This document shows positions 36,087-37,600 of a DNA stretch of 64,000 bases, in pieces. Location of the stretch: NCBI GenBank assembly GCA_951406725.2, contig OX597832.1:70432001-70496000 (forward strand), given 5' to 3'. Position 1 is the first letter of the stretch. Each line of letters starts with the position of its first letter. The notes beneath the pieces are model-generated. The model was given only the letters and a program-made list of their open reading frames with translations, was not told the origin of the DNA and searched no databases. Position numbers and translations under genes: made by a program. This DNA comes from Octopus vulgaris (Eukaryota).

Positions 36087-36511
36087 TTATTTATTTATAT
36101 GTATATGTATATATTTATATATATAGTTGCAAACTGAGATAGGGGTTGTAAATGCAACCCTCCATAGGATAACATATATCCAATATACTGCCAGTGAAGT
36201 ACCCAACAAAGTTAATACATAAATGTTAAGAATTGCGATGCAATTAATTCATTCACTGTATTATATGGGCAAAGGTAAATTGTATTACCACAAATTCATA
36301 ATACAAAATAAGAAAATGGAGAAATACATCTAAATCAAATATCAACTACCAGATTAAACCACCACATAAGAAACTTTAAGGTCAAACATAATAATATATG
36401 ACAAAACAGTGTACATAAAGGAGTGTACATAAAGGAGTAATATGATACAATAAGTACAATATGTATAAGAGAATATAAATATAAATAAATATAAATATAA
36501 ATATAAACTAC

Positions 36512-36638
36512 ATCTTACAGCTGTTTCGGCCCTGCAGATAAGTATGTCTCATTTTACTTATATTAGCCATGTGTGGTAGGTCAATAAGTAGTTATAAATG
36601 AGACATTTACAAAATTATCCTAAGGCCTCTTCGGAGAT
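36512..36638 (-). ncRNA. Type I hammerhead ribozyme motif with a U4C core variant and a long helix II
   Basis: Minus strand: AUCU-CCGAAGA-GGCCU-[long insert]-GGGCC-GAAA-CAGCUG-UA-AGAU. The insert contains ATGTCTCATTT/AAATGAGACAT (36544-36554/36596-36606) and TACTTAT/ATAAGTA. Confidence 0.75.
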
Positions 36639-37171
36639 TATGAAATACAAACCAAATTACATATACACTTACATAAGTGTGGGTACATACCCATAATAGA
36701 TCATATATATATTCATATGGGTGCATATACTCATACTCCTATACATATACATATACACATACATGATAATATAAATAATATAAATCAACAAACATACATA
36801 TGTTCCATATTCAACGTTACAGTTTTTCAACTTAATATTGTGATATTACAATATAAAAAACATACACATATCAATACCCAAATGCAGATATACAGAGTCA
36901 AGAGTACATTATATTAATTTATATTAATTTACAAAATGTCATTAATGTTAACATCATTACCATTATCATTACCACTAATGTTACCAATATCATTATTCTT
37001 ATTAATAACACTAATAGCAATATAATAGCAATATAATAGCAAAACTAAGGACCACAACAGTACTACAGTACCATGCAAAGCATTAAATATCTGTATATAC
37101 ATACAAAATAAGAAATAAAAGCATTCGGTTTACATGATATTAAGATCCACAGGTGCACGGATGTATATATG

Positions 37172-37440
37172 TGAACTTAATCTTGGTTTGACTGGCATCT
37201 TTCTTCATGTTTCCTGAAAATCTTATCCACAACTTTATCGGTATTTTTACCTTCTCTGGGATGTTACTAATTGATTTGAGAACTTTACATTGTTGGAAAA
37301 CATAAATGAACTTAATCTTGGTCTGCCTGGCATCCTATTTCAAGTTTCTGAAACTCATATCTACAACTTTATCGGTATATTAGCACTCTCTAAGATGTTA
37401 CTAATTGATTTAAGAACTTTACATTATTGGAAAACCTATA
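37172..37440. repeat. Two diverged tandem copies of a ~135-bp unit
   Basis: TGAACTTAATCTTGGT...CAACTTTATCGGTAT...GATGTTACTAATTGATTT.AGAACTTTACATT.TTGGAAAAC starts at both 37172 and 37307. Confidence 0.85.
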
Positions 37441-37445
37441 TGAAA

Positions 37446-37530
37446 TTAGCTGAAGATTACTTCACATATTATATTTGCTGTAATATTTGCAGCTTTAATA
37501 AATTGTTATAGTATGAAACAATTGTACTAA
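37446..37530 (+). ncRNA. Type I hammerhead ribozyme motif (canonical core, U-U mismatch at the base of helix II)
   Basis: UUAG-CUGAAGA-U-UACU-[insert with GCUGUA/UGCAGC stem]-AGUA-U-GAAA-CAAUUG-UA-CUAA, followed by the family terminus and (TA)n. Confidence 0.75.
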
Positions 37531-37565
37531 ATTACCGGATCCATTCTTGTTGCTTATTTTTTGGT

Positions 37566-37600
<35 letters not shown>

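Follow-up and report, generated by a model that had tools for sequence, protein, structure and literature searches.

We analysed a 64-kb stretch of the Octopus vulgaris genome (contig OX597832.1 of assembly GCA_951406725.2, positions 70,432,001 to 70,496,000 of the forward strand), the whole of which is called the window below, with a focus on an island of about 1.4 kb that carries two hammerhead ribozyme motifs, one on each strand. The window is rich in microsatellites, with 190 rows of tandem repeats, and the island lies between two such tracts. The motif on the minus strand is called hammerhead A and the one on the plus strand hammerhead B; the sequences carrying them are referred to as elements A and B, and the dispersed repeat represented by element B as family B. 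The features of the island are as follows.

35917 to 36125, no strand: left microsatellite tract of mixed CTAT/TA/CT/TA repeats, from the tandem-repeat scan; likely insertion target.
36126 to 36511, minus strand: 3' side of hammerhead A, comprising a short stretch, a (TTTATA)n run at 36472 to 36507 and about 350 nt of unique AT-rich DNA; putative part of element A.
36512 to 36638, minus strand: hammerhead A, from descriptor match, folding and sequence.
36639 to 37124, minus strand: low-complexity AT-rich DNA 5' of hammerhead A, without an open reading frame (ORF) remnant; putative truncated 3' untranslated region of element A, or host spacer.
37108 to 37177, no strand: putative junction of A and B, taken as the support interval of a composition changepoint (best position 37124); contains a residual TATATATG at 37161 to 37168.
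37172 to 37448, plus strand: tandem duplication of 2.1 copies with 84% matches and a period of 134 (135 at the start), lying upstream within element B.
37446 to 37530, plus strand: hammerhead B, from descriptor match, folding and sequence.
37531 to 37565, plus strand: 3' tail of about 35 nt that is conserved in family B and stops at the microsatellite, from copy comparison.
37566 to 37610, no strand: right microsatellite tract, (TA)5 followed by (TG)n, from the tandem-repeat scan.

The analysis confirmed the two hammerheads on opposite strands, at 36512 to 36638 (minus) and 37446 to 37530 (plus), that had been proposed in an earlier reading of the same sequence (the original prediction). That reading described the motifs as bracketing an island of 1.4 kb. 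They do bracket a stretch of DNA, of only about 0.8-1.0 kb, because hammerhead A sits about 390 nt inside the left edge of the island; the spacing between the motifs is about 810 nt and their orientation is divergent. The tandem duplication of about 135 bp reported directly 5' of hammerhead B was recovered as well.

Both motifs contain the parts of a type I hammerhead (CUGANGA ... GAAA ... UH in the type I helix order), A with one deviation (U4C); in both, helix I has 4 bp, helix III is an 8-nt palindrome and the site is GUA. Palindromic helix III, a feature absent from the original prediction, is the mark of the dimer-requiring hammerhead type known from Penelope-like elements (PLEs) (PMC4209133, PMC6765202), and A and B are therefore regarded as dimer-type ribozymes. 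A descriptor for hammerheads of this kind, composed only after the motifs had been seen, matched three times in the window, at A, at B and at 21161 to 21245 on the minus strand, whereas 100 shuffles of the window and 2000 of the island yielded no match.

In hammerhead A, helix I is formed by ATCT/AGAT, and the core reads CCGAAGA, which constitutes the U4C deviation. The base of helix II comprises 6 bp closed by G10.1-C11.1, and 100 nt separate the core halves, including a perfect 11-bp stem (36544 to 36554 with 36596 to 36606); U4C and a helix II of about 100 nt holding such a stem had both been described correctly before. In folding, this helix II outperforms 199 of 200 shuffles (z -2.86). 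Helix III, which precedes the GUA site, is ACAGCTGT, and the cut is predicted to fall 3' of 36516. The (TTTATA)n run begins about 8 nt past helix I. A U4C change lowers the in vitro activity of a viroid hammerhead, yet it persists in viroids (PMC3088659).

Hammerhead B pairs TTAG with CTAA in helix I and has the canonical core CTGAAGA. Between its core halves lie 58 nt with an inner hairpin; the base of helix II comprises 4 bp and shows a U10.1.U11.1 opposition. Helix III is ACAATTGT, again preceding the GUA site, and the predicted cut lies 3' of 37526. The fold of B only modestly beats shuffles (z -1.44, with 16 of 200 as good), and the minimum-energy fold predicted for the monomer differs from the hammerhead. 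U11.1 is present in four of the five family-B sequences and U10.1 in two of the three that retain that position. The U.U opposition is common to two B copies, and a U after the core together with a U before GAA is also found in 14 of the 25 families in the published table of Hydra-clade PLE hammerheads (File S2 of PMC8557442, counted and compared by eye), which indicates a family trait rather than damage; the U10.1A change once proposed as a repair mutant was therefore misdirected.

Searches with BLAST, nhmmer and a covariance model revealed that family B comprises five sequences at four loci in the window; the model was built from four of these sequences, which match it by construction. Besides the island, the loci are as follows.

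21130 to 21246, minus strand: second B copy, with a hammerhead at 21161 to 21245 and its tail at (TA)n, without an A half alongside.
50934 to 51263, both strands: third B locus, with a plus-strand copy at 51128 to 51263 whose hammerhead (51145 to 51230) has a decayed core, and an inverted 59-nt copy of the 3' end at about 50934 to 50992 (minus); without an A half.
139 to 250, minus strand: fourth B locus, where the copy has a 5' truncation within helix II and its tail lies at (TA)n, without an A half.

The four longer B sequences are 67-80% identical to one another. All five share a tail that stops about 35-40 nt beyond the cut site, and four of them end directly at a TA run, the exception being the right arm of the 51-kb locus, with at least one such end at each of the four loci. 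The 5' extents vary, one copy being cut inside helix II and another lacking detectable homology upstream of the hammerhead. Across the three B copies that have both strands of helix I, this helix is 100% paired, with three of its four pairs changed on both sides. Family B therefore displays a PLE-like architecture, namely a dimer-type hammerhead near the element end, a fixed 3' end with a 30-40-bp tail, variable 5' truncation and insertion in (TA)n. The hammerhead at 21161 to 21245 is fully canonical, with a CUGAUGA core and a 7-bp helix II base closed by G-C, and judged by its sequence it is the best candidate for cleavage in the window. At the 51-kb locus, the inverted arm adjoins (TA)n and is identical to the 3' end of the same locus at 54 of 59 positions. 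An inverted copy of the own 3' end occurs at this locus only among the four (0 of 300 shuffles score as high) and is absent at the island, where the candidate, a 30-nt inverted repeat of 73% identity at 37089 to 37118, was rejected since 466 of 500 shuffles scored as high. No target-site duplication was readable in the microsatellite flanks of the B insertions. The duplicated unit at 37172 to 37448 contains no hammerhead, has no stable fold (z +1.5 and +1.3) and shows weak homology to what lies upstream in the 51-kb copy (a score attained by 2 of 2000 and by 6 of 2000 shuffles). A scan of prokaryotic genomes with the family-B pattern returned one match, in Paenibacillus, which lacks a hammerhead and was set aside as chance, and the phage collection searched gave no match. 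About 250 nt upstream of the 21-kb hammerhead, at 21489 to 21508, an 8-nt core complement and a 9-nt direct repeat of a helix II strand were read by eye; this stretch could be a rearranged remnant or chance.

The two halves of the island are not homologous: in two comparisons of A with B, 59 of 500 and 793 of 2000 shuffles scored as high, and the B profile and covariance model did not detect A on its coding strand. Weak covariance-model matches at 36239 to 36309, 37057 to 37094 and 36531 to 36625 (E 1.5-3.9) were treated as noise. The original prediction was thus right that the motifs differ in sequence and that the island is no simple inverted duplication. It had also held that the pairing would be a chance juxtaposition if the halves always occurred apart, and for the right half this is what the window contains, B being present without A at all three other loci. 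Alignments of whole halves to the 1.1-1.2-kb flanks of the other B loci were at or below shuffled scores in 8 of 8 cases, and tests of the complex parts of A against these flanks were null in 7 of 8; the eighth (1 of 40 shuffles) was dropped on inspection as a gappy AT-rich patchwork. A is single-copy within the window, where no second copy of 36126 to 36511, of the whole block or of the junction was found. Predicted energies of the helix III duplexes are -11.1 kcal/mol for A:A, -6.4 for B:B and -2.2 for A:B. In addition, the G+T fraction of the plus strand shifts from 0.41 to 0.55 at 37124, just left of the duplication (log-likelihood ratio 12.5, against a maximum of 8.1 in 300 shuffles), and this flip would fit two oppositely oriented pieces joined there.

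A 2026 annotation of the O. vulgaris genome assigns 6.83% of it to PLEs, divided among 190 families (PMC13282606). Their hallmarks according to Craig et al. (PMC8557442) are 5' truncation, an inverted 5' copy, a 30-40-bp tail and (TA)n targets. In the Hydra clade of PLEs, the hammerheads lie near the 3' end and almost all families insert in (TA)n; the type I motif, the short tail after it and the (TA)n targets are as in family B, and one of the hammerhead families is from Octopus bimaculoides. Among the 25 families of the table, helix III has the form ACAG-NN-CTGT in four, as in A, and ACAA..TTGT in one, as in B. Penelope-1_NV carries a TGTAGTTT stretch past helix I, as A does when the two are compared by eye, and in Penelope-13_HM an inverted 5' copy places a hammerhead on each strand, like the island (all PMC8557442). 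Unlike these elements, the island has no attached ORF, carries U4C in A and bears unrelated motifs on its two strands. By eye, no match to A or B was seen in the 3' ends of Hydra-1_Obim and Naiad_Obim or in the whole of Naiad_Ovul, and 12-mers gave 0 matches there; 12-13-mers of A and B likewise gave 0 matches in the 5,371 characters taken from the supplement of the O. vulgaris repeat paper (PMC13282606). Judged by sequence and architecture, A and B look, and probably work, like the 3' ends of Hydra-type PLEs; they cannot be filed as members of that clade, because no ORF is attached and only the style of the hammerhead matches. The coding marks of the clade are RWK and DKT motifs, a CxCX5C linker and an endonuclease that lacks CCHH.

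Minimal hammerheads of other PLEs offer a second comparison. In Schistosoma mansoni, Cervera and De la Pena (PMC4209133) described minimal hammerheads that occur as duals, on opposite strands and separated by about 100-700 bp, and, in a truncated Cotesia bracovirus PLE, a second hammerhead on the opposite strand at the 5' end. Like A and B, the minimal hammerheads belong to type I, have a palindromic helix III and are mostly solitary in truncated PLEs; helix I measures 4-5 bp, and dimer action with low activity is predicted for them. Unlike in A and B, helix II is a plain hairpin of about 3-8 bp with a short loop, and the spacing of about 810 nt found here compares with about 100-700 bp there. 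The S. mansoni duals, Penelope-13_HM and a further PLE in the window (42205 to 43929) all have a ribozyme on each polarity, and the earlier view that this would be unusual for a genomic repeat is therefore wrong. Non-LTR (long terminal repeat) retrozymes (PMC7229834; bioRxiv 10.64898/2026.07.22.740005) resemble the island in being non-coding and AT-rich, with a type I hammerhead, and are probably PLE-derived; one of them, axolotl HHR_Amex2, has a U.U mismatch at the helix II base, as in B (PMC7229834). They consist, however, of tandem 150-450-bp units that each contain a hammerhead, whereas here the 134-bp unit has none and no hammerheads adjoin on the same strand, and a retrozyme reading of the duplication was rejected, since its unit neither contains a hammerhead nor folds stably. 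The literature searched, a body that leaves most subscription papers outside its coverage, yielded no description of these octopus motifs.

Two other PLE remnants are present in the window. The first (42205 to 43929), 5 kb away from the island, is of the Neptune/Nematis type and has a GIY-YIG ORF at 42839 to 43216 with a CX4CXXC linker, placed between inverted arms that are identical at 579 of 599 positions. Each arm contains a minimal U3-A8 hammerhead, at 42301 to 42337 (minus) and 43798 to 43834 (plus); the relaxed descriptor used for these gave 0.2 matches per shuffled window (maximum 2 in 100), which makes them individually weaker. The remnant resembles the island in having two outward-pointing, opposite-strand hammerheads about 1.5 kb apart, a palindromic helix III and microsatellite flanks, and differs in its same-family arms, GIY-YIG ORF, U3-A8 core and short helix II, its hammerhead being unrelated to A and B. 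Long relatives of the ORF have a YVDD motif upstream, and one of the ten relatives scanned has Pfam reverse transcriptase (RT) and GIY-YIG domains. Its best longer match falls within an O. bimaculoides protein that bears a cadherin annotation, probably a gene model that absorbed a transposon piece. The second remnant (27508 to 28463) has a C-terminal GIY-YIG piece at 28246 to 28380 (minus) between 83-nt inverted arms (95% identity) and long (TAT)n/(ATA)n tracts inside; no hammerhead in it matched the descriptors.

As a separate observation, positions 324 to 1327 hold one unclassified repeat in inverted and direct copies (324 to 583 against 871 to 1130, 86%; 985 to 1327 palindromic, 88%). TA/TG tracts lie at its bounds, it folds strongly and its arrangement recalls PLE arms; no hammerhead was found in this cluster.

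We consider it likely that the island consists of two separate 5'-truncated PLE ends of unrelated families, lying head to head in (TA)n-rich DNA, each with the 3'-terminal dimer-type hammerhead motif of its family. Of the two alternatives raised at the outset, back-to-back insertions of different families fit the data, and a single element with a ribozyme on each polarity gained no positive support. The RNA of each parent element would carry the hammerhead near its 3' end. The element protein would nick (TA)n DNA, and target-primed reverse transcription would start just 3' of the hammerhead; the one lizard PLE protein examined in vitro nicks AT-rich DNA and initiates internally (PMC11167929). 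Copying would then halt before the coding region and leave a non-coding 3' fragment. Element B, from about 37125/37170 to 37565, and element A, from about 37120 leftwards, would be the products of two such events in one microsatellite-rich spot, their closeness being due to a shared preference for (TA)n targets; according to a review, PLEs also tend to land in or beside older PLE copies. By analogy with published tandem PLE transcripts, cleavage by either hammerhead would require a like copy with which to form a homodimer through helix III. Each motif is solitary on its own strand, and the locus is therefore predicted to be inert or nearly so; U4C would reduce the activity of A further.

Several observations weigh against the reading of two separate PLE ends. 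First, given A, uniform insertion would place B within 1 kb behind it in opposite orientation with a chance of only 2-3%, and 1.5-11% of 64-kb windows would hold one or more divergent pairs of mixed families within 1 kb, both values being rough, with inputs taken from a window chosen for having the pair. A genome of 2.8 Gb would, on the same reckoning, hold hundreds to thousands of chance pairs, and more with shared targeting. Second, element A has a single copy, which leaves its family, ends and independence from B putative. About 390 nt, against an expected 35-40, lie between hammerhead A and the left (TA)n tract, the position of this hammerhead relative to its element end is uncertain, and the junction holds only TATATATG and no long tract. 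Third, Hydra-clade hammerheads have a loop II of 3-10 nt and a loop III of 1-3 nt (PMC8557442), whereas a helix II region of 58 or 100 nt and a loop-less 8-nt palindrome are found here. Fourth, the covariation test that favours the B structure (6 of 500 shuffles reach the whole-structure score) includes four sequences, and their relatedness inflates it. Fifth, Rfam at the gathering score gave one match in the window, which is not a hammerhead, and the 56 matches at E<=10 around the island, mostly microsatellite against microRNA and small nucleolar RNA models, include none either; the length of helix II is the likely cause of this miss.

A further point of this kind is that neither the island nor the surroundings of any B copy yielded a remnant of an RT or endonuclease, PLEs of the EN+ kind being defined by an ORF with a telomerase-like RT and a GIY-YIG endonuclease. 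A Pfam search of 5 of the 28 listed island frames gave no family match, and the 78-amino-acid frame had no homologue in the protein search. When 151 GIY-YIG relatives were compared with the island by tblastn, the best E value was 0.39, and a profile search reached 1.6, so that no endonuclease remnant emerged; PLE motif patterns were likewise absent. The protein probes were Neptune-like, and Hydra-type proteins were covered by short motif patterns only. Since no such remnant was found, the assignment of A and B to PLEs is one of architecture only; an absent ORF remnant is expected for 5'-truncated copies.

The alternative that survives best, and which we consider rather unlikely, is a single integration from two RNA templates, in which a PLE protein dimer would nick both strands of (TA)n and prime on a family-A RNA and a family-B RNA. 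The low chance of adjacency for a given A would suit it, and the island has the orientation of ordinary inverted PLE arms, as at 42205 to 43929, 27508 to 28463 and 50934 to 51263, with both outer ends meeting microsatellite and little target remnant at the junction. In addition, the sole PLE protein that has been examined in vitro can cut both strands and extend them, and its predicted form is a dimer (PMC11167929). However, all three of these inverted-arm loci have same-family arms (579 of 599 positions, 83 nt at 95% and 54 of 59 positions, respectively), and for a rotifer, no evidence of cross-mobilisation between two PLE types is reported (PMC3846280). The 3' end of A is undefined, and the TATATATG at 37161 to 37168 could be B's own target. 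Moreover, at 1.5-11% per window the number of chance pairs in the genome would be as large as given above, and microsatellite clustering would add to it. If this alternative were true, inverted PLE arms would arise from two separate RNA templates, and unrelated PLE families could be co-mobilised into hybrid two-ribozyme insertions; mixed-family head-to-head pairs would then be a genomic test of arm formation, which is an open mechanistic question according to Craig et al. (PMC8557442).

Very unlikely, in our view, is that A and B together constitute a mobile unit of about 1.4 kb that propagates with a ribozyme per strand, such as a non-autonomous derivative of a PLE that undergoes processing in both polarities. 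They do share an architecture (4-bp helix I, long helix II, 8-nt palindrome and GUA) within one microsatellite-bounded block. This architecture is generic for the ribozyme class, however, and only a weak helix III duplex is predicted for A:B; at all three other loci B lies apart from A, and neither the block nor its junction recurs in 64 kb.

Slightly less credible still is that A comes from another hammerhead repeat (a retrozyme, a short interspersed element (SINE) or a satellite), or that the DNA at 36126 to 36470 and 36640 to 37120 belongs to the host and encloses a very short remnant of A. The window contains A only once and without a link to an ORF, and the (TTTATA)n run about 8 nt past its helix I could mark its real end. 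Against this stands the lack of a tandem array of A, retrozymes being tandem hammerhead units, and helix III and the tail of A resemble those of Hydra-clade PLE hammerheads; this variant would still leave the pair as two independent things. Two small terminal hairpins at 36126 to 36200 were considered as a special structure and rejected (fold z -1.15, not significant).

We regard it as scarcely conceivable that the island was copied into DNA from a circular RNA replicon, viroid-like or ambisense, that has a ribozyme in each polarity: one self-cleaving motif is predicted per strand and the minus strand folds better than shuffles (z -3.4, 12 shuffles), probably because of helix II of A, but the plus-strand fold has a z of +0.8, the circular fold is not rod-like, with 28-29 hairpin loops and paired fractions of 0.56 and 0.65 equal to those of shuffles (12 per test), no ORF has a family match, and the right part belongs to a dispersed genomic repeat whose ends are retrotransposon-like.

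The remainder of the window holds further coding and repeat sequences. An open frame of 654 codons at 11410 to 13374 (plus) contains a PKDCC-like kinase domain, and its residues 300-654 are 99% identical to an Octopus vulgaris PKDCC-like kinase. Long interspersed element (LINE)-type remnants lie at 2812 to 5099 (plus), with endonuclease and RT domains, and at 59210 to 61162 (plus), with RT and zf-RVT domains. Pieces of a PIF1 helicase at 53065 to 53937 (plus) are possibly a Helitron remnant, and a Mariner-type transposase fragment (Pfam Transposase_1) is located at 40745 to 41362 (plus). A transfer RNA (tRNA)-like sequence at 51412 to 51466 (plus; Rfam 31.7 bits) directly follows (TA)n and is itself followed by a T run; it may be the head of a tRNA-derived SINE or a pseudogene. 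An abundant dispersed repeat, with copies 75-94% identical, occurs at 21580 to 21990, 32863 to 33397, 606 to 744, 1409 to 1605 and 6218 to 6414, and we take it to resemble an Octopus SINE.

If the island does represent two separate PLE ends, the pair as such matters little, being two remnants in a genome of which about 7% consists of PLEs. The pairing of hammerheads on opposite strands is itself already known for PLEs, and the feature of A and B that is mildly new is their very long helix II, of 58 and 100 nt. The core-motif search reported in PMC8557442 used a spacer of 7-17 nt. A helix II of 58-100 nt escapes Rfam and would also escape short-loop descriptors, and thus the PLE ribozymes of cephalopods may be under-counted.

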